Assembly (NCBI GenBank): GCA_045546815.1 | Contig: JAZQDN010000054.1 | Location: forward strand, 14,801-78,800 | Origin: Eubacteriales bacterium | GTDB taxonomy: Bacteria > Bacillota > Clostridia > Oscillospirales > QAKW01 | Direction: 5' to 3' | DNA: 64,000 bases | Notes under the pieces: generated by a model | The model's input: the letters and a program-made list of their open reading frames with translations, nothing else | Database searches by the model: none | Told to the model about the DNA's origin: nothing | Translations under genes and position numbers: made by a program | Shown here: positions 29,848 through 36,997 of the stretch, one piece after another | How positions within the stretch are numbered: position 1 is the first letter of the stretch | Layout: every line of letters starts with the position of its first letter

Positions 29848-29998
29848 TTTATTGCTCCTTTAGGTTACATATATTTATTTTAGCACTAATTCTATACTTT
29901 TTAAAGTCAAAGTGTTAATTATTTTTTTCGTCTCATAAAATATTTTGATATGGTTTTTGTCAACAATAATGACAAACACAGTAGCAAGGGGGAACGTT

Positions 29999-32311
29999 AT
30001 GGAACGATTTTCAAAAAAAGCAGGGCAAGCGCTTCAGTCAGCGCAAAAGACCGCCTCATCGCTCGGTCATACCTACATCGGCTCTGAACATCTGATTCTC
30101 GGAATACTATTACAGCCCGACAGCGTCGGCGCAAGAATACTTATGTCTCGCGGCATTACCTTTGATAAGGTCAAAACACGTCTTTGTGAGCTTGTCGGCT
30201 CATCGTCGCAGACATCGCTTAGCGCGTCCGATATGACCGCGCGCACACGCAGGATAATTGAGCAGTCAATGACGTTTGCGCGTCGTTACGGCTTCAGTGC
30301 AATCGGCACAGAGCACATTCTGCTCGCAATCGCGCACGAGTCGCAGAGCGTTGCAATGCAGATTTTAACCTATCTTGGCACTGACAGCAAGGCACTGCGC
30401 GACACCGTTACCGAAAAGCTGGGGCTTTACGAAATCCCGACTGCCGCCTCAAAGTCACAAAAGACATATAAAACGCTTACAAAATATGCGCAAAACCTTG
30501 TCAGCCGCGCACGCGAAGGAAAAATACCCGATGTTGTGGGCAGGGAAGCGGAGCTTAAACGGGTTATGAGCATACTTACCCGCCACACCAAAAACAACCC
30601 CTGCCTTATCGGTGAGCCGGGTGTTGGCAAAACCTGTATTGCCGAAGGTCTTGCCCTGCTTATTGCAAAGGGTGACGTGCCGCCGCAGCTTGCCGATAAG
30701 CAGATATTTATGCTCGACCTCACAGCGCTCATCGCGGGCTCAAAATACCGCGGTGAGTTTGAGGAGCGTCTGCGCACGGTAATTGACGAAGTGGAGAAAA
30801 ACCCCGAAATTATACTATTTGTAGACGAAATTCACATTATTGTGGGCGCGGGCGCCGCGGAAGGCGCGATTGACGCGGGCAATATCTTAAAGCCTGCGCT
30901 TGCTCGCGGGCGGATAAAAATGATTGGTGCAACAACTACTGTCGAGTATCGCAAGCATATAGAAAAGGACAGAGCTCTTGAGCGCCGCTTTGCTCCCGTC
31001 ATAATCGACGAGCCGAGCGAGAGCGTGTCGCTCGATATCTTAAAGAGCATCCGCCCGACTCTCGAGTCACACCACAGCGTTACAATAACTGACGAAGCGC
31101 TGAAGGCGGCGGTGACGCTGTCACGTCGGTATATCGGTGACAGATTTTTGCCCGACAAGGCGATCGATATTATTGACGAGAGCGCGTCCAATGCAAAAAT
31201 AACAGAGATTGCAAAGGCGTGCGAGCACAAAAAGAAAACCCGCGCGCAGATAGAGGACCTTATAAAGCGCGGGATGTATGCAAACGCCGCGCGTCTGCGT
31301 TCGGAACTCGCAGTCGAAAACGCGGCGTTTACACCGATAATTGACAAAAAAGACGTATGCGGGGCGTTGTCGCGCTGGACAGGAATACCTGTGAGCACGC
31401 TGACGGGCGAAAACTGTCATAACTTTTTGCAGTTAAAAGAAACACTTTTACAAAAAATCATCGGGCAGACAGCCGCCGTAACGGAGGTGTGCGACGCGCT
31501 GATGCACGCGGGCACGGGGCTGTGTGACCCTGACAGACCCCTTGCATCGTTCATTTTTGCAGGTCCTACGGGTGTCGGCAAGACAGAGCTGTGCAGACAG
31601 ATTGCCAAAAACCTGTTTGGCTCGCAAAAGGCGCTCATAAAGCTTGATATGTCAGAGTACAGCGAGCGCCACAGCATTGCGCGGCTCACCGGCTCACCGC
31701 CGGGATATGTCGGTCATGACGACGGCGGTAAGCTGTGCGAGCAGGTGCGCGCACGTCCGTACAGTATTGTGTTGTTTGACGAGATGGAAAAGGCACACCC
31801 CGATGTTTTAAATATCCTGCTCGGCATTCTCGATGACGGCACACTCACCGACACGCGCGGCAACACCGCATCGTTTAAAAACACGGTTATCGTGCTCACC
31901 ACCAACATCGGTCAGCTTGAAAAGCACGCGGGATTTATCGGGCAAAGTGACAGCGCAGTTATCGGCGCGCTTAAAAAGACGCTGCGCCCCGAGCTTATAA
32001 ACCGTATCGACAAAACGGTGGTCTTTTCTCCGCTTGACGACGACGCAATAAAAATCATCGCAAAAAACTGCCTTGCCGAAATAAGCAAACGCCTTGAGGG
32101 CAGGGGTATGCATATTGATTTCGACGACAGTGTCTGCGACTATATCGCGGGCAAAAATAAAAGCTATGAATACGGTGCACGAAACGTAAAGCGGCTTGTT
32201 GCCAGATACGTAGGCGACCCCGTTGCACAGCTTATTGCAAACGGCACGCTCGCTCCCGATTGCAATACAACCCTCACCCTTGACGATTTACTGCAAAAAA
32301 TATTGCGATAA
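29999..32311 (+). CDS. clpC: ATP-dependent Clp protease ATP-binding subunit ClpC-like (class I AAA+)
   Basis: ATG 29999 (RBS AGGGGGA) gives [16 protein letters not shown]. Clp_N repeats. Two Walker A motifs, GEPGVGKT and GPTGVGKT. Confidence 0.85.
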
Positions 32312-32337: not shown

Positions 32338-32377
32338 AAAAAAAGCCGACAGAATTGTATAATTTTGTCGGCTTTTT
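32338..32377. terminator. Bidirectional intrinsic terminator
   Basis: A-run, gccgaca (32345..32351) pairing with tgtcggc (32366..32372), T5. Lies between convergent clpC and the serpin gene. Confidence 0.8.
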
Positions 32378-32435: not shown

Positions 32436-33785
32436 TTACGGTTGGTTTACAATACCGATAAAACGGGGCATTCCGTCCTTACCGCTTACTGCAAAAATGA
32501 ACGGGCGGTCGAGCACCATATCAACCTCGTCTTTGGGAGGTGCAGCGCCTGCGTCCTTTGCAATTACGGTATAAGCCGCCGCCTCGCACCCTTCCTCGTC
32601 TATTTTAACGCGGGCGGCGTGCTTTGCCTGCGAAACAAACAGCGGATAGTCGGTGGTAAGAGGCGAAAAATCGGAAACGGTGTAGTCAAACGCCGATTTT
32701 ATTCCAAGCGTTTCAAGGCATTCGATAAGGTCGGTGTCAGACATTACGTCAAACTTTGGCAGTGTCAGGTTTACAATGGGGTAGGCGGTCTGCACCCCGC
32801 CGTCATAGTTGTATTTATCAGCGTCCCCCGTTATGATGTCGAGCACAGCGTCGCTGTTTATAATGTCATACACGCTTTTTTGTTCATCGGGCAGAATAAA
32901 GTACATACGGCTGTCCTGCTCAAAGCCGAGGCTTGTTGCGCTGTAGCCGTCACCATAGTAATACGACTGCGAGCGCGAGCTGTTCATAAACTCGGTCTGC
33001 ACCTTGCCGTCTGATGTGTTAAAATCCCGCGTTTCGTTTAAGCTCTCGTTAAACTTAACGTCCCACTTTGCTTTAAAGTATATCGTTGACACAAGCGCCG
33101 CGATCGTCGCGTCGTTAAACTTAAGCTCCTTTGTGCTGTCATTGAGCAGGTCCTTTGTGTTGTCATTTATCCACTCTTTTATTGCCTGCACATACTTTTT
33201 GTCGGAAAAATTGCCCGAGGCGGTCGACGCATAGTAGCTGTCCTTTAAGATGTTTATCGTGTCCTGATTATAGTTTATGCCGTCACGCAGCCACAGCGAG
33301 TTTGCAAGCACCGACGAATAAACGCCGTTGTCAGCATACAACTTCTGCCACAGCTTGTTTGCGTTTTGGCGAAGGTCGGATATATCGTCCTTGCCGAGCA
33401 CTGATAAAATTTCGTTACGTGTACTGCTGTCTGTACACTCTGCGAGCATCGCAAGCGCAAAGTATATGTTAGCGGGTGAGTACACAAGGTTTTGCCCGTC
33501 ATCCTTTGCAAGCACACCGAGAGTGTTTTTAACATATTCACGAAAATCGCTATCGTCAATTTCAATGTTATTTTTCTCGTGCTCGATGTCAAACCACTCA
33601 CTGTAGGCGTCAGAAAATTCCTCGTAGTTTGCAAAGCTTTCTTCTAACGGATAGCTGACCTGCGTGGGATACTCCGCTGTGCCGAGCGGTGTGTATCGTG
33701 CTTCAAGACACTGGTCCTTGCCCCTGCAACCAAAAAGTGAAAGAGATATTATTGTTATTAATAATAATGAAATGATTTTTTTCAT
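32436..33785 (-). CDS. Serpin-family protease inhibitor, lipoprotein
   Basis: 449 aa. Lipobox SLSLFGC-RG. Serpin hinge/RCL and C-terminus: KIDEEGCEAAAYTVIAKDAGAAPPKDEVDMVLDRPFIFAV...PRFIGIVNQP. Confidence 0.85.
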   Translation of the reverse strand: MKKIISLLLITIISLSLFGCRGKDQCLEARYTPLGTAEYPTQVSYPLEESFANYEEFSDAYSEWFDIEHEKNNIEIDDSDFREYVKNTLGVLAKDDGQNLVYSPANIYFALAMLAECTDSSTRNEILSVLGKDDISDLRQNANKLWQKLYADNGVYSSVLANSLWLRDGINYNQDTINILKDSYYASTASGNFSDKKYVQAIKEWINDNTKDLLNDSTKELKFNDATIAALVSTIYFKAKWDVKFNESLNETRDFNTSDGKVQTEFMNSSRSQSYYYGDGYSATSLGFEQDSRMYFILPDEQKSVYDIINSDAVLDIITGDADKYNYDGGVQTAYPIVNLTLPKFDVMSDTDLIECLETLGIKSAFDYTVSDFSPLTTDYPLFVSQAKHAARVKIDEEGCEAAAYTVIAKDAGAAPPKDEVDMVLDRPFIFAVSGKDGMPRFIGIVNQP

Positions 33786-33797
33786 AGTATCGCTCCT

Positions 33798-35465
33798 TTA
33801 CGGCTGGTTTACAACCCCGATAAAACGGGGGAGGTCGTCAACGCCGGTTACAACAAATATAAACGGACGGTCGAGGGTAAAGTCAAACTCGTTTTTAGAA
33901 GTAACCACGCCTGTTATCATATACTCGTCAACATACGATGTGCCCACACAGCCCTCTTCGTCTATTTTTACGCGTGTTGCCTGATTGACCTTGTCAAGCC
34001 ACAGCGGTAAATGCGTCGAAATGTTTGAAAAATCGGCAGTCTTGCTGTTAAATGCATCGTTTATACCAATGGCTTTAAGGCTTTCGGTAAGGTCAAGGTC
34101 TGCTTCAATATCAAATTTGGGAATTGAAACATTTATTTTAGACTCGTCATACGTTGTTACGCCCTTTGATGTATTGCTGTCGGAAATAAAATTATAAAAA
34201 ACGCTGTCTTTTAAAACGTCATTTACCGTTTTGTCTTCGTCAGGTAAAATAAATGTCACGTTACCCGACTCGTAAAGTCCTTTCTTTATGGCGCTGAAGC
34301 TGTCTGATTTATAAAAGGCGTCCGATGCCACAAATGCTCTCATAAAGTCACAGTTGACATCGCCGTTTACGCCGTGGAAAGTACCTTTTTTTACAAGCTT
34401 TTCACCGAATTTTGTGTGCCACTGTGCTTTAAAAAACAGAGTTGACATAACTGACATCGCCGTGTCGGGTGAAAAAGACTTTTTTTGAATGTTGTCTGCA
34501 AGCAGACCGCCCGTTTGCTCGTTCAGCCAGTTGCGCATTGCCTGCGAATATTCCTGCGTTTTAAAATCGCCCGCAAAGGTTGATGCATAGTATTTATTCT
34601 TTAAAATATCAATTGTCTGTTGATTATATTCAGTACCGCCTGACAGCCAGACAGAGTTTGCCTGTACCGAGGTCGTAACACCGTTGTTAAAATAAAACTT
34701 TTGCCAGAGCTTGCTATTGTTTTCGCGCAAGTCTTCAACACTGCTTTTGCCGAGTAAGTCTAACAGCTCGTCGCGTGTGTTGCCGTCTGCGGTCTCTGCC
34801 AGCATCGATAGTGCAAAATACAGCGTTGACGGGGAGTAGACAAAATTATCTTTTTTTGCACTGTCTGTAAGTGAACCGAGCGTTTTTTTGACAAAGTCTG
34901 CGTTGCCCGCGTTGTCTGTAGGCAACGCAGATATGCCGTCAAGGTAACTTTTAAGCGCCTGCTTTGCTGCTGCTTTTTCTTCGCCCTCAAGCTTGTTTAC
35001 TGCATAGTGCGTCGGCATTGTGGGATAGACTGCCGTGCCAAGTATCTTTGCGATTGGTGATACAACGGGAAAAACCGTTGGCTGTGACTGATTGTCTTTT
35101 TGCGGTTCAGTGGGAGATGTCGGCTGCTGCGAGCTGCCCGCAGATGTGTTGTTATCTTCGGGCGGCATTGAATTGTTGTTATCTTTCGGTGCGGAAGGGT
35201 CGCTGTTGTTATCCGCCGAGCCTTTATCGGTCGAGCCGTCGGGAATCTCCTCTGTCGGTTCGTTTTCGATATAGCCTATTTCATCATCGATAGGTCGTGT
35301 GCGGAAATAAACCGTAACCGCGCTCACAACGAGCACAAGGCAGGCAACCGCCGACACAGCGCGTATAATTATTGCTTTTCTTTTGTTTTTTCTCGCTCTG
35401 TCTGCGCGTAAAAGCAGACCTGCGTCAATATTTCCGATAAGTTCATAAAGCTTTTCCGGCTTCAT
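33798..35465 (-). CDS. Single-pass membrane protein: short cytoplasmic anti-sigma-like N-terminus + TM + low-complexity linker + serpin domain
   Basis: 555 aa. Residues 1-30 MKPEKLYELIGNIDAGLLLRADRARKNKRK. TM about 31-54. P/N/D/S/Q-rich linker. Serpin domain ends EEGCVGTSYVDEYMITGVVTSKNEFDFTLDRPFIFVV...PRFIGVVNQP. The start overlaps the sigma gene stop (ATGA). Confidence 0.8.
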   Translation of the reverse strand: MKPEKLYELIGNIDAGLLLRADRARKNKRKAIIIRAVSAVACLVLVVSAVTVYFRTRPIDDEIGYIENEPTEEIPDGSTDKGSADNNSDPSAPKDNNNSMPPEDNNTSAGSSQQPTSPTEPQKDNQSQPTVFPVVSPIAKILGTAVYPTMPTHYAVNKLEGEEKAAAKQALKSYLDGISALPTDNAGNADFVKKTLGSLTDSAKKDNFVYSPSTLYFALSMLAETADGNTRDELLDLLGKSSVEDLRENNSKLWQKFYFNNGVTTSVQANSVWLSGGTEYNQQTIDILKNKYYASTFAGDFKTQEYSQAMRNWLNEQTGGLLADNIQKKSFSPDTAMSVMSTLFFKAQWHTKFGEKLVKKGTFHGVNGDVNCDFMRAFVASDAFYKSDSFSAIKKGLYESGNVTFILPDEDKTVNDVLKDSVFYNFISDSNTSKGVTTYDESKINVSIPKFDIEADLDLTESLKAIGINDAFNSKTADFSNISTHLPLWLDKVNQATRVKIDEEGCVGTSYVDEYMITGVVTSKNEFDFTLDRPFIFVVTGVDDLPRFIGVVNQP

Positions 35466-36022
35466 ATGGTATAGCCCTCCTTTATAAGAAATTCTTTAAG
35501 GTCATTGCGTGTTCTGTGAAGGGTTGTTTTTACTTTTGATTCGGAGCAGGCGCAAAACCTTGCGATATCGCGTGTTGAGTCGTTATAGAAATATCGCATA
35601 ACAAACATATCACAGGCAGCTGTTGATTGCTTTTTTAAAAACGAGTCAATCGCGCGTACCAGCTCTTTTTGCATAGCGCTGTCCTCGGTGTCGTCACTGC
35701 CCGACACAATTTCTGACAGCTCTGACAGCGTCAGTGTGTACTCGCCGCCGCCCCTGCGCTCTGCCGTTTTTTTGCGAAGAAGGTCGACCGACACAAATCG
35801 GGTTATACGTGCAAGAAAGGTCGATAAGACATTTGGCTTTTGCGGGGGGATGCTGTTCCACGCTTTAAGATATGTATCGTTTACGCATTCTTTTGCGTCT
35901 TCCGTATCACAGACAATATTGTATGATATTTTTTTAAGGTAGCTACCGTATTTTTTGTCAGTATGTGTTATTGCGCTCTCGTCACGTGACGTGTACAGCT
36001 CAACTATCTTTTTGTCGTTCAT
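35462..36022 (-). CDS. ECF-type sigma-70 family RNA polymerase sigma factor
   Basis: 186 aa. Region 2 (DAKECVNDTYLKAWN) and region 4 HTH (STRDIARFCACSESKVKTTLHRTRNDLKEFL). No region 1 or 3. Confidence 0.85.
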   Translation of the reverse strand: MNDKKIVELYTSRDESAITHTDKKYGSYLKKISYNIVCDTEDAKECVNDTYLKAWNSIPPQKPNVLSTFLARITRFVSVDLLRKKTAERRGGGEYTLTLSELSEIVSGSDDTEDSAMQKELVRAIDSFLKKQSTAACDMFVMRYFYNDSTRDIARFCACSESKVKTTLHRTRNDLKEFLIKEGYTI

Positions 36023-36046
36023 AAATTAACCCCCTTCTACCATATA

Positions 36047-36073
36047 ATTCGTAAACAAAATAAAAAAGTTACA
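36047..36073 (-). promoter_or_regulatory. Speculative ECF-like promoter upstream of the sigma gene
   Basis: Minus strand TGTAAC (36073..36068), 16 nt, CGAAT (36051..36047), about 25 nt before ATG 36022. No convincing sigma-A hexamers in this interval. Confidence 0.25.
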
Positions 36074-36074
36074 A

Positions 36075-36108
36075 AAAAACGCCAAAAAAATCAGTTTTTG
36101 GCGTTTTT
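36075..36108 (-). terminator. Intrinsic terminator after the CPBP gene
   Basis: cgccaaaaa (36080..36088) pairs with tttttggcg (36095..36103). On the minus strand a T-run follows. Confidence 0.8.
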
Positions 36109-36997
36109 ACAAAATATTTTTAACACAGATAAAGATGCTTACCGCAAAGAATATCCATATATAAACAGAGCCCAAGGGGTCGCCGTATGCAAGCCGTTTG
36201 ACGTTTGTCTTGAGGCGGCGTTTGTCACCAAGCTCGTCAATTATCTTTTCTGTAAGCCGCAGTGTCAGGTACAGCACCAAAAACAGAGTGCATACGAGAA
36301 TTACAACAAAAATAATATCGTCTAAAAGATAACCGATATAATCGCTGTTTGACGAAATAAACAGCGCAAGCGCATTGTTTATTATGTGGCAGATGATTGA
36401 CGGCCACACACTTTTGAACAGATGCGTCAGCACAGCATAAAATACGCCCGCTACAAAAAGCGACGGTATCGTCACCACGTTGCCGTGGAAAAGCGCAAAG
36501 ATTATCGAGGTCATAATGACCGATATCGACACGCCGTAGTGTCCGTACTCTGTGAGCGCGACACCGCGCAGTAACAGCTCCTCGCACACAGCGGGCATAA
36601 ACACCGCGGCGATAACCATAACGTAGGTTTTGTCACTCGCGAAGTTTACAGTCGAGGTGGTGAGCGCAATATCGAAAAAGTTTGAAAATATTGCCGCAGA
36701 CCCCATATTTATAAGCGCGCAGATAACCGATGTCGACAGACCGAACAGCAAAATAAACGGAAGATAGCGCAGCTTTATATGGTGCAGTGACAGCAGATTT
36801 TTCGCCTTGACGTGCGACAGCTTTGTGTAGACGATTATCGGGATAATAAAAATCACAATATAAATTACGATTTTTTCGATATTTGTAAGGTTTTTAAGAA
36901 AAAATCCCGTGCAGATATCAAGCGCCGACAAAAGCGTCAGTACCGCAAGCAGTAAAATGGATATTCTGTTTGAAATATAACGTTTTTTCTCAGACAT
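36107..36997 (-). CDS. CPBP (CAAX) family intramembrane glutamic protease
   Basis: 296 aa polytopic. Motifs CEELLLRG (EExxxR), FALFHG (FxxxH) and CHIINN. Confidence 0.8.
   Translation of the reverse strand: MSEKKRYISNRISILLLAVLTLLSALDICTGFFLKNLTNIEKIVIYIVIFIIPIIVYTKLSHVKAKNLLSLHHIKLRYLPFILLFGLSTSVICALINMGSAAIFSNFFDIALTTSTVNFASDKTYVMVIAAVFMPAVCEELLLRGVALTEYGHYGVSISVIMTSIIFALFHGNVVTIPSLFVAGVFYAVLTHLFKSVWPSIICHIINNALALFISSNSDYIGYLLDDIIFVVILVCTLFLVLYLTLRLTEKIIDELGDKRRLKTNVKRLAYGDPLGSVYIWIFFAVSIFICVKNIL

Follow-up and report, generated by a model that had tools for sequence, protein, structure and literature searches.

An extracytoplasmic function sigma factor coupled to a membrane-tethered serpin in gut and rumen Clostridia: a probable sigma/anti-sigma pair with a possible protease-sensing ectodomain

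The subject of this report is a three-gene operon encoded on the minus strand of a 64,000-nt stretch of DNA from an Eubacteriales bacterium (contig JAZQDN010000054.1), the whole of which is referred to here as the window. The operon encodes a sigma factor of the extracytoplasmic function (ECF) type, a 555-aa single-pass membrane protein ending in a serpin domain, and a 449-aa lipoprotein serpin. The gene layout, the junctions and the domain architecture had been described in the original prediction, and each of these elements proved correct by domain searches, by reading of the sequence and in an AlphaFold2 model. The genes and the spacer between the last two of them are the following:

35462..36022, minus strand: ECF (group 4) sigma factor of the lineage termed here class A, 186 aa, with Pfam and NCBIfam matches.
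33798..35465, minus strand: 555-aa tethered serpin, N-terminus MKPEKLYELIGNIDAGLLLRADRARKNKRK, stop codon at 33798..33800.
33786..33797, minus strand: 12-nt intergenic spacer AGGAGCGATACT, read from the sequence, bearing the ribosome-binding site of the second serpin.
32436..33785, minus strand: lipoprotein serpin, 449 aa, matching Pfam Serpin (9.8e-70) over model positions 14-370.

According to the sequence and a terminator scan, these genes form a single transcription unit on the minus strand, running from about 36106 to 32340, with a terminator hairpin and a T-run at each end. At the first junction, the TGA of the sigma gene overlaps the ATG of the 555-aa open reading frame (ORF) as ATGA (ACCATATGAAGCCG), while at the second the TAA of the 555-aa ORF is followed by the 12-nt spacer and then by the ATG of the 449-aa ORF.

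The sigma factor consists of the sigma-2 and sigma-4 domains only and its size lies within ~160-200 aa, as is characteristic of ECF (group 4) members of the sigma-70 family. Its matches to Pfam Sigma70_r2 (2.7e-9), Sigma70_r4_2 (2.7e-6) and Sigma70_ECF (3.6e-5) are all above the cut-offs, as is the match to NCBIfam TIGR02937 (sigma70-ECF; 54.5 bits, cut-off 42.9). None of the named ECF equivalogs (SigW, SigV, SigX, SigM and SigY) was reached, the best scores being 34-63 bits against cut-offs of 190-260 bits. Sequence searches place the protein in a family of more than 5,600 relatives, and the nearest solved one is Bacillus subtilis SigW (5wuq, E = 6.8e-7).

The 555-aa protein is predicted to span the membrane once with its N-terminus inside, based on a basic stretch, a 25-residue hydrophobic helix and a modelled helix at residues 15-55. 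Its parts, from the N-terminus to the C-terminus, are as follows:

35376..35465, minus strand: cytoplasmic tail, residues 1-30, the proposed sigma-binding module, with its start codon within the ATGA overlap.
35301..35375, minus strand: transmembrane (TM) helix, residues 31-55, from the sequence and AlphaFold2, with the basic stretch RARKNKRK just before it on the inside.
35061..35300, minus strand: extracellular disordered linker, residues 56-135, rich in Pro, Ser, Asp and Asn, from composition and the predicted local distance difference test (pLDDT).
34908..35060, minus strand: pre-serpin segment, residues 136-186, joining the tether to the serpin core and containing A-x-Y-P-x-M-x-x-Y-P.
33801..34907, minus strand: complete serpin domain, residues 187-555, with Pfam Serpin and PDB matches by sequence and fold.

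Over its 80 residues, the linker contains 12 Pro, 10 Ser, 9 Asp, 9 Asn, 7 Thr, 7 Glu and 5 Gln, and residues 187-555 cover positions 2-370 of the 370 in the Pfam Serpin model (E = 1.1e-58). In the AlphaFold2 model, for which a family alignment of 60 sequences was used (mean pLDDT 82), helices occupy residues 3-10 and 15-55, the latter being one continuous helix through the membrane span; residues 57-132 are disordered and residues 510-523 form a flexible loop (both with pLDDT <50), and a confident serpin core begins at about residue 141 (pLDDT ~90), with the pre-serpin motif modelled against it. The motif, followed by an acidic and aromatic stretch, lies outside the Pfam Serpin model and is found in tethered and lipoprotein forms, with Y147, P148 and P154 invariant or nearly so across all three serpin classes; in the tethered forms, the segment that carries it is the physical link to the membrane. 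The top Foldseek matches are all serpins, the best being native-state tengpin (2pee, E = 1.3e-25), in which the N-terminal tail, bound close to strand s1A, keeps the protein trapped in its metastable native state (PMC8233489).

To place this operon among its relatives, homologues of the 555-aa protein were collected (597 found) and the N-termini of the best 120 were classed. Sixty-six of these begin with MKxEKLxxAIGxIDDxLIxxA followed by a basic stretch and a TM helix, 17 with MxRYxxANEGIHAPEE and a TM helix, and 28 are lipoproteins. When one genome per species was scanned, at least 501 proved to contain relatives, and 80 loci (L001-L080) were retained in addition to the window, all from gut or rumen Clostridia (Oscillospiraceae, Acutalibacteraceae, Lachnospiraceae and Ruminococcus). 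Their computational annotation yielded 90 serpin ORFs, the two of the window included. A class-A sigma gene lies directly upstream of 46 of the 90, and these are the tail-bearing serpins (sigma phmmer E 1e-29 to 1e-61); nine others, bearing the second tail type (MxRYxxANEGIHAPEE...), are preceded by a sigma of a different lineage, class B; and no sigma gene is found upstream of any of the remaining 35, which are lipoprotein, signal-peptide/secreted or contig-truncated serpins. In one case (L054) the tail-bearing gene starts at a contig end, and a mate contig from the same assembly (L045) ends with a sigma gene and the start of the tail. A 4-nt overlap joins the sigma and serpin genes in most of the sigma-coupled cases that were scored (37 of 42), and class-B serpins are coupled to their sigma by the same 4-nt overlap.

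Class-B sigmas (156-186 aa) are ECF factors by Pfam (r2 ~1e-12, r4_2 ~1e-15) and, like the class-A sigma of the window, fall below every named ECF equivalog cut-off, and BLASTP detected no significant similarity between class B and class A. Among these loci the pairing of tail type with sigma lineage is strict, and the arrangement of a sigma gene followed by a tethered serpin gene is far beyond chance. Since the second tail is coupled to a dissimilar ECF sigma lineage, the comparison also indicates that the serpin ectodomain was probably recruited independently onto two unrelated sigma/partner lineages. The simpler alternative offered in the original prediction, that two surface inhibitors merely share a transcript with a sigma gene, is unlikely given this strict link.

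Two further observations concern the organization of such modules. In one locus from Acutalibacteraceae (L001:1142-5523), two full sigma and tethered-serpin modules lie in tandem, differing in their reactive loops and each having its own promoter motif (scores 26-27). Another locus (L041:1880-2957) contains a further ECF sigma of 197 aa, more distant from that of the window, whose gene overlaps that of a 165-aa single-pass protein with the N-terminus MKNYEEMSNSVLKRIETYK..., which shows that such genomes contain several distinct sigma/partner families side by side.

The cytoplasmic tail is not confined to serpins. A 49-column profile derived from serpin-linked tails was searched exhaustively with HMMER against 1.84 billion cluster representatives (E up to 1e-3) and matched 6,376 of them, always at residues 1 to ~47, in proteins of 47-817 aa. 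Despite the serpin origin of the profile, a serpin domain is present in 15 of the 99 best tail matches of at least 150 aa, and nearly all the others have no Pfam domain. The tail profile, run against a database of 5.8 billion proteins, returned only short contig-end fragments. The partners encoded downstream of relatives of the window's sigma vary as follows:

Sigma at least 60% identical to that of the window (L081, L082, L093, L094): the partner is a tethered serpin in 4 of 4.
Sigma 52-57% identical (L085): the partner is a 585-aa tethered serpin.
Sigma 52-57% identical (L083, L084, L086): partners of 151, 245 and 266 aa, with the tail motif, a TM helix and the 4-nt overlap.
Sigma 44-49% identical (five metagenomic loci): non-serpin partners with tail-like N-termini.

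Coupling of the sigma to a TM-anchored serpin, the synteny that the original prediction proposed to survey, is found in all four of the orthologues at or above 60% identity, as well as in 46 of the 90 sampled serpin ORFs. Reverse synteny from the window's sigma on metagenome contigs yielded six loci, all at most 49% identical and none serpin-coupled, a sample too small for frequencies. In a rough tree built by neighbour joining, the serpin-coupled sigmas have those with non-serpin partners nested among them. The wider sigma family is not dedicated to serpins. The cytoplasmic module co-varies with the sigma lineage independently of the ectodomain, in 46 class-A loci, in nine class-B loci and in the non-serpin partners too. 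As far as sequences can tell, the tail and the TM helix constitute a generic, uncurated partner module of a Clostridia ECF family, on which ectodomains are interchangeable. An anti-sigma factor would be expected to behave in this way, and it is accordingly unlikely that the tail is a mere sorting signal or that the genes are co-transcribed by chance. Directly downstream of two of the sigma/partner modules (L085:5858-7570 and L084:4808-5467) lie genes for dockerin-containing proteins, one of them with leucine-rich repeats, a hint that some lineages connect these modules with cellulosome-like or cell-surface assemblies.

Upstream of the serpin-coupled sigma genes, a conserved two-block motif was identified, consisting of TG[C/T][A/G]ACC, a gap of ~16 nt, and CGTCT or CGGTAT. 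Of the 46 upstream regions, 18 match a strict regular expression for this motif (~1 expected); with a weight matrix made from 17 sites and random 160-nt windows as the background, 29 of the 46 regions exceed the background 99th percentile, and the sites always lie 50-75 nt before the start codon. The motif resembles the SigW/SigX promoter type, which has AAC in the -35 and CGT in the -10 block. The corresponding site of the operon is:

36039..36074, minus strand: candidate ECF-type promoter, with -35 TGTAAC (36068..36073), a 16-nt spacer and -10 CGAAT (36047..36051).

This site scores 7.2, above the 99th percentile of random 160-nt windows, and lies 52 nt before the start codon, as in orthologous loci; its TGTAAC and CGA are invariant in L081 and L082. 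Judged by these motifs, autoregulation by the sigma factor has good support at the level of the family and is plausible in the window. Within the window, the promoter matrix found nothing above background that would point to further regulon members. In two other loci (L023:5601-5635, score 13.2; L036:5689-5724, score 17.6), an ECF-type motif lies directly before serpin genes with a plain signal anchor and no adjacent sigma gene, which suggests that some serpins may be controlled by an unlinked sigma of this family. A second element, GWGAARGS, occurs in the 5' untranslated region just past the -10 block, 18-39 nt before sigma start codons (for example in L001 at ~1142 and 3332, L071, L077, L039 and L059). 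It is found in 13 of the 46 loci (~0.03 expected per 160 nt), often inside the palindrome GAAAGGCCTTT (6 of 46), but the window lacks it. A role as an operator or as a hairpin in the leader is conceivable.

The remaining features of interest in the serpins are the lipid anchor of the second one and the reactive loops of both:

33726..33785, minus strand: signal peptide and lipobox of the lipoprotein serpin, residues 1-20, MKKIISLLLITIISLSLFGC, fitting the lipobox pattern with its Cys by inspection.
32511..32597, minus strand: hinge and reactive loop of the lipoprotein serpin, EEGCEAAAYTVIAKDAGAAPPKDEVDMVL, with a hinge canonical for the family.
33873..33959, minus strand: hinge and reactive-centre loop of the tethered serpin, residues 503-531, EEGCVGTSYVDEYMITGVVTSKNEFDFTL.

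The family hinge (P15-P8) reads G-[C/V]-x-A-A-A-[Y/F]-T and is kept in all three classes alike (tail-class, class-B and lipoprotein). The P-side of the reactive loop is hypervariable across the family, a combination expected if loop insertion is under selection as target specificity diversifies. Measured against the hinge of inhibitory serpins (P15 Gly, small P14, small P12-P9), the family fits at P15 and P12-P10, and its P9 is aromatic. At P14, where classical inhibitory serpins carry Thr or Ser, this Clostridia family has Cys (or Val) throughout, and at P9 the small residue of the classical forms is replaced by Tyr or Phe; the exposed conserved hinge Cys could render inhibition redox-sensitive.

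The two serpins of the window are 42% identical over the serpin domain, and the loop of the lipoprotein (…AKDAGAAPP…) is conserved in L081 and L082. The original prediction had regarded this second serpin as an output of the operon. It does belong to the same transcription unit in the window, but it stands outside the conserved unit, being found only in the closest relatives (L081 and L082); most loci consist of the sigma and the tethered serpin only. In the closest relative of all, a third serpin gene (480 aa, lipoprotein) lies between the CPBP gene discussed below and the sigma gene (L081:3912-5354), and serpin copy number around the operon appears to shift between close relatives. Two other loci (L032:5413-7149 and L040:5347-7128) have the sigma and tethered-serpin pair followed by a longer secreted serpin of 578-593 aa with an additional N-terminal domain of ~200 residues.

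The operon is bounded by the following terminators and neighbouring genes:

36107..36997, minus strand: Rce1-like/CPBP intramembrane protease gene, directly upstream of the operon, with a terminator between.
36075..36106, minus strand: upstream terminator, hairpin with T-run AAAAACGCCAAAAA-CTGA-TTTTTTTGGCGTTTTTTT, read from the sequence.
32340..32377, no single strand assigned: downstream terminator, a hairpin between an A-run and a T-run, listed on the plus strand in the terminator scan.
29945..32311, plus strand: gene for a ClpC-like AAA+ ATPase, 788 aa by longest ORF, converging on the operon.

The upstream hairpin terminates the CPBP gene and shields the operon from read-through; it is unlisted in the terminator scan because its T-run was counted into the stem. 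The downstream hairpin, read on the minus strand, has the stem GCCGACA...TGTCGGC followed by TTTTTTT, and appears to act as a two-way terminator for the operon and the convergent ClpC-like gene. A Clp ATPase gene also lies a few genes past the serpin operon in L082. The CPBP gene closes a series of genes that overlap one another (Thy1, thymidylate kinase, LPG_synthase_C, DJ-1/PfpI and CPBP), which is kept in L081, L082 and L094 and not in more distant serpin loci. Its product was considered as a functional partner, for example as a site protease, and rejected, since the gene recurs only in those three loci and not across the 80, as in ordinary neighbourhood conservation.

Taken together, the ECF sigma and the 555-aa protein probably constitute a real sigma/anti-sigma pair. 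The original prediction had proposed the 555-aa protein as the cognate partner of the sigma, and the comparison among genomes upholds this through the pairing of tail and sigma in 46 loci and the modularity of the tail. For the full model, in which the serpin ectodomain serves as the sensor of an extracellular protease, we put the probability at about 0.45. Comparative support extends to gene order, translational coupling, tail/sigma pairing, tail modularity, the promoter and the hinge; what is inferred is binding of the tail to the sigma, a protease as the signal, coupling of serpin conformation to the tether, and regulated proteolysis.

In the resting state of the sensing model, the 30-residue tail, comprising a short helix and a helix running into the membrane, would keep the sigma at the membrane, and the 4-nt translational coupling would balance the amounts of the two proteins. 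Activation would start when a serine protease outside the cell, for which an elastase- or chymotrypsin-like enzyme of host or luminal origin is the most plausible candidate, attacks the reactive loop, which would insert into sheet A and leave the protease trapped. The conformational change would alter the conserved pre-serpin segment or expose the juxtamembrane region, so that the tethered protein could become a substrate for site-1 and site-2 (RasP-type) cleavage. The freed sigma would then transcribe its own operon from the upstream ECF-type promoter, resulting in more tethered serpin and, in the window's genus, more lipoprotein serpin. With rather more doubt than confidence, we further suggest that tethered serpins may be suicide-substrate receptors, whose stressed-to-relaxed refolding, upon covalent capture of a host or luminal serine protease, would be relayed via the pre-serpin segment to the membrane, setting off proteolysis of the anti-sigma factor so that the sigma is freed, and that these may have evolved at least twice, on two ECF lineages, and be present in many gut and rumen Clostridia.

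Several observations weigh against the sensing model. Profile searches, which the original prediction had proposed as a check, matched the serpin and sigma r2/r4 families as expected from it, but the anti-sigma N-terminal families were not matched by the tail: neither tail type gave a significant Pfam or NCBIfam match to zf-HC2, RskA, DUF4179/RsiV, RsgI_N or FecR at E up to 10. The best sub-cut-off match of the tails was to DUF4179 (E = 0.004), over the TM region of one homologue, and the idea that the MxRYxxANEGIHAPEE tail is RsiV/DUF4179-like was dropped, as it had no such Pfam match at E up to 10. The tail also has no relative among PDB structures. Linker length varies widely among homologues, some having almost none, and no conserved site-1 position is evident. 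The window's promoter is weak when taken alone, with ~15 sites in the 64 kb scoring equal to or better than 7.2. The hinge of the window's tethered serpin, G-C-V-G-T-S-Y-V, is small but diverged (G-T-S for A-A-A, and Val at P8), and its reactive loop is unlike those of its lipoprotein paralogue and its orthologues; the difference between the loops of the putative sensor and the co-expressed lipoprotein is awkward for the assumption that both meet the same protease. Finally, the reactive loop lies near the serpin C-terminus and cleaved serpins are very stable, so that a cut in the loop leaves the ectodomain attached and an additional transduction step must be assumed.

The explanation that best survives beside the sensing model, although we consider it unlikely, is that the sigma/anti-sigma pair is genuine and the serpin is surface-anchored inhibitor cargo, not a sensor, with the sigma set by some other cue: envelope stress, membrane-protein turnover or plain autoregulation. 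It accords with the established biochemistry of serpins, in which reactive-loop cleavage does not remove the ectodomain, with the different reactive loops of the window's tethered and lipoprotein serpins, and with the composition of most loci, in which the obvious output of a sigma and tethered-serpin pair is the tethered serpin itself. In addition, a membrane-anchored bacterial serpin without a sigma link exists in Bifidobacterium longum (PMC8012564). On the other hand, the extracytoplasmic domain of an anti-sigma factor is the input domain in ECF systems generally, and the recruitment of the serpin on two unrelated lineages, with its retention in many species, is hard to explain by anchoring alone, because a lipobox, such as family paralogues carry, suffices for that.

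More improbable is a titration mechanism, in which the linker is the bait and free protease cuts the linker or juxtamembrane region directly as site 1. The attached serpin would shield the linker until consumed, and the sigma would be released only once protease exceeds inhibitor capacity. The disordered Pro-, Ser-, Asp- and Asn-rich linker, which is long in the window's protein and its close relatives, would suit such a mechanism, as would the established consumption of serpins one-for-one in acting, and conformational signalling would not be required; in many homologues, however, the pre-serpin motif follows the TM helix with hardly any linker. Very improbable is a 555-aa protein that is no anti-sigma factor and whose tail is a membrane-targeting or signal-anchor motif like YSIRK or KxYKxGKxW, the sigma being merely co-transcribed, since, although the tail matches no curated anti-sigma family and conserved n-region motifs are known in Gram-positive signal peptides, a sorting signal would not be expected to follow the sigma lineage as the class-A and class-B tails do, the 4-nt overlap is typical of partners working in fixed proportion, and non-serpin tail-bearing proteins are likewise coupled to relatives of the sigma.

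The sensing model has partial parallels among characterized systems. By analogy, the closest precedent would be SigV/RsiV of B. subtilis and Clostridioides difficile, in which an ECF sigma is co-transcribed with a single-pass anti-sigma factor that is itself the receptor of the threat: direct binding of lysozyme, a harmful host enzyme, triggers cleavage of RsiV, first by signal peptidase and next by RasP (PMC9044953). In contrast to RsiV, which binds its ligand reversibly, covalent capture of a protease with refolding is proposed here; the ectodomain is a serpin and not of the RsiV/DUF4179 type, and the tail and sigma fall below the RsiV, DUF4179 and SigV models. In the SigW/RsiW system of B. 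subtilis, SigW is the nearest solved relative of the window's sigma, and the promoter motif described above resembles the SigW/SigX type; however, RsiW has a zinc-binding anti-sigma domain of ~80 residues, whereas the protein described here has ~30 cytoplasmic residues and no zf-HC2 match, and the window's sigma scores 51 bits against the SigW equivalog cut-off of 209. In the BlaR1/MecR1 systems, an extracellular sensor is covalently modified by the beta-lactam it detects and a transmembrane signal switches on the resistance gene. The likeness lies in a sensor modified covalently by its own target, with a signal that crosses the membrane; the differences are a penicillin-binding domain, a zinc protease that cleaves a repressor, and no sigma/anti-sigma pair.

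In SigI/RsgI of cellulolytic clostridia, a short conserved N-terminal module and one TM helix are likewise combined with swappable extracellular sensors (PMC6582324, PMC6056542); here, in contrast, the sigma is a canonical ECF factor with a sigma-4 domain, the tail has no RsgI_N match, and the sensor would be a protease inhibitor and not a carbohydrate-binding module. Bifidobacterium serpins offer another comparison, being gut-commensal proteins with protease-induced expression: that of B. breve is protease-inducible via a separate two-component system adjoining the serpin operon, and that of B. longum is membrane-anchored N-terminally (PMC8012564). They differ in that the serpin lies outside the signalling protein and in belonging to Actinobacteria, not Clostridia. 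Siropins, tengpin and miropin (Group T bacterial serpins) share the clade context, coming from gut bacteria or anaerobes and acting as inhibitors of elastase-like proteases of the host (PMC5127057, PMC8233489). Tengpin, the best structural match, also resembles the tethered serpin in having an N-terminal extension that controls its conformational state. These proteins, the siropins being compared by description only, differ in having been characterized as soluble recombinant inhibitors with no mention of a sigma factor or membrane tether.

The original prediction was aware of no anti-sigma factor with a serpin sensor, and literature searches combining serpin with anti-sigma, ECF or sigma factor likewise returned no relevant paper and no prior description. 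The gut-serpin and serpin-phylogeny literature that was checked mentions no sigma context, nor do serpins appear in the main text of the ECF reclassification paper, and public records label homologues of the tethered serpin 'hypothetical protein'. ECF sigma/anti-sigma signalling as such is known; the new elements are a serpin as the ectodomain and the uncurated tail module.

One feature of inflammatory bowel disease is an excess of serine-protease activity in the gut lumen, serpins of gut bacteria are being explored as therapeutics (PMC5127057, PMC8201313, PMC13376542), and the searchable literature yielded no description of how serpin inhibitors of Clostridia are regulated. Regardless of the serpin question, the analysis defines a very large partner module of Clostridia (6,376 cluster representatives) that no curated family describes. 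If the sensing model is true, the tethered serpins would represent a new type of ECF input, a covalent suicide-substrate receptor, and a signalling role for serpins in bacteria, as well as the first use of the serpin conformational change in transmembrane signalling. The promoter, the sigma, the tail with its TM helix and a loop-swappable serpin would then make up a compact modular part for protease biosensors in gut bacteria. In that case, many uncultured gut species would possess a direct sensor of host proteases, such as neutrophil or pancreatic elastase, with its specificity residing in a short hypervariable loop.

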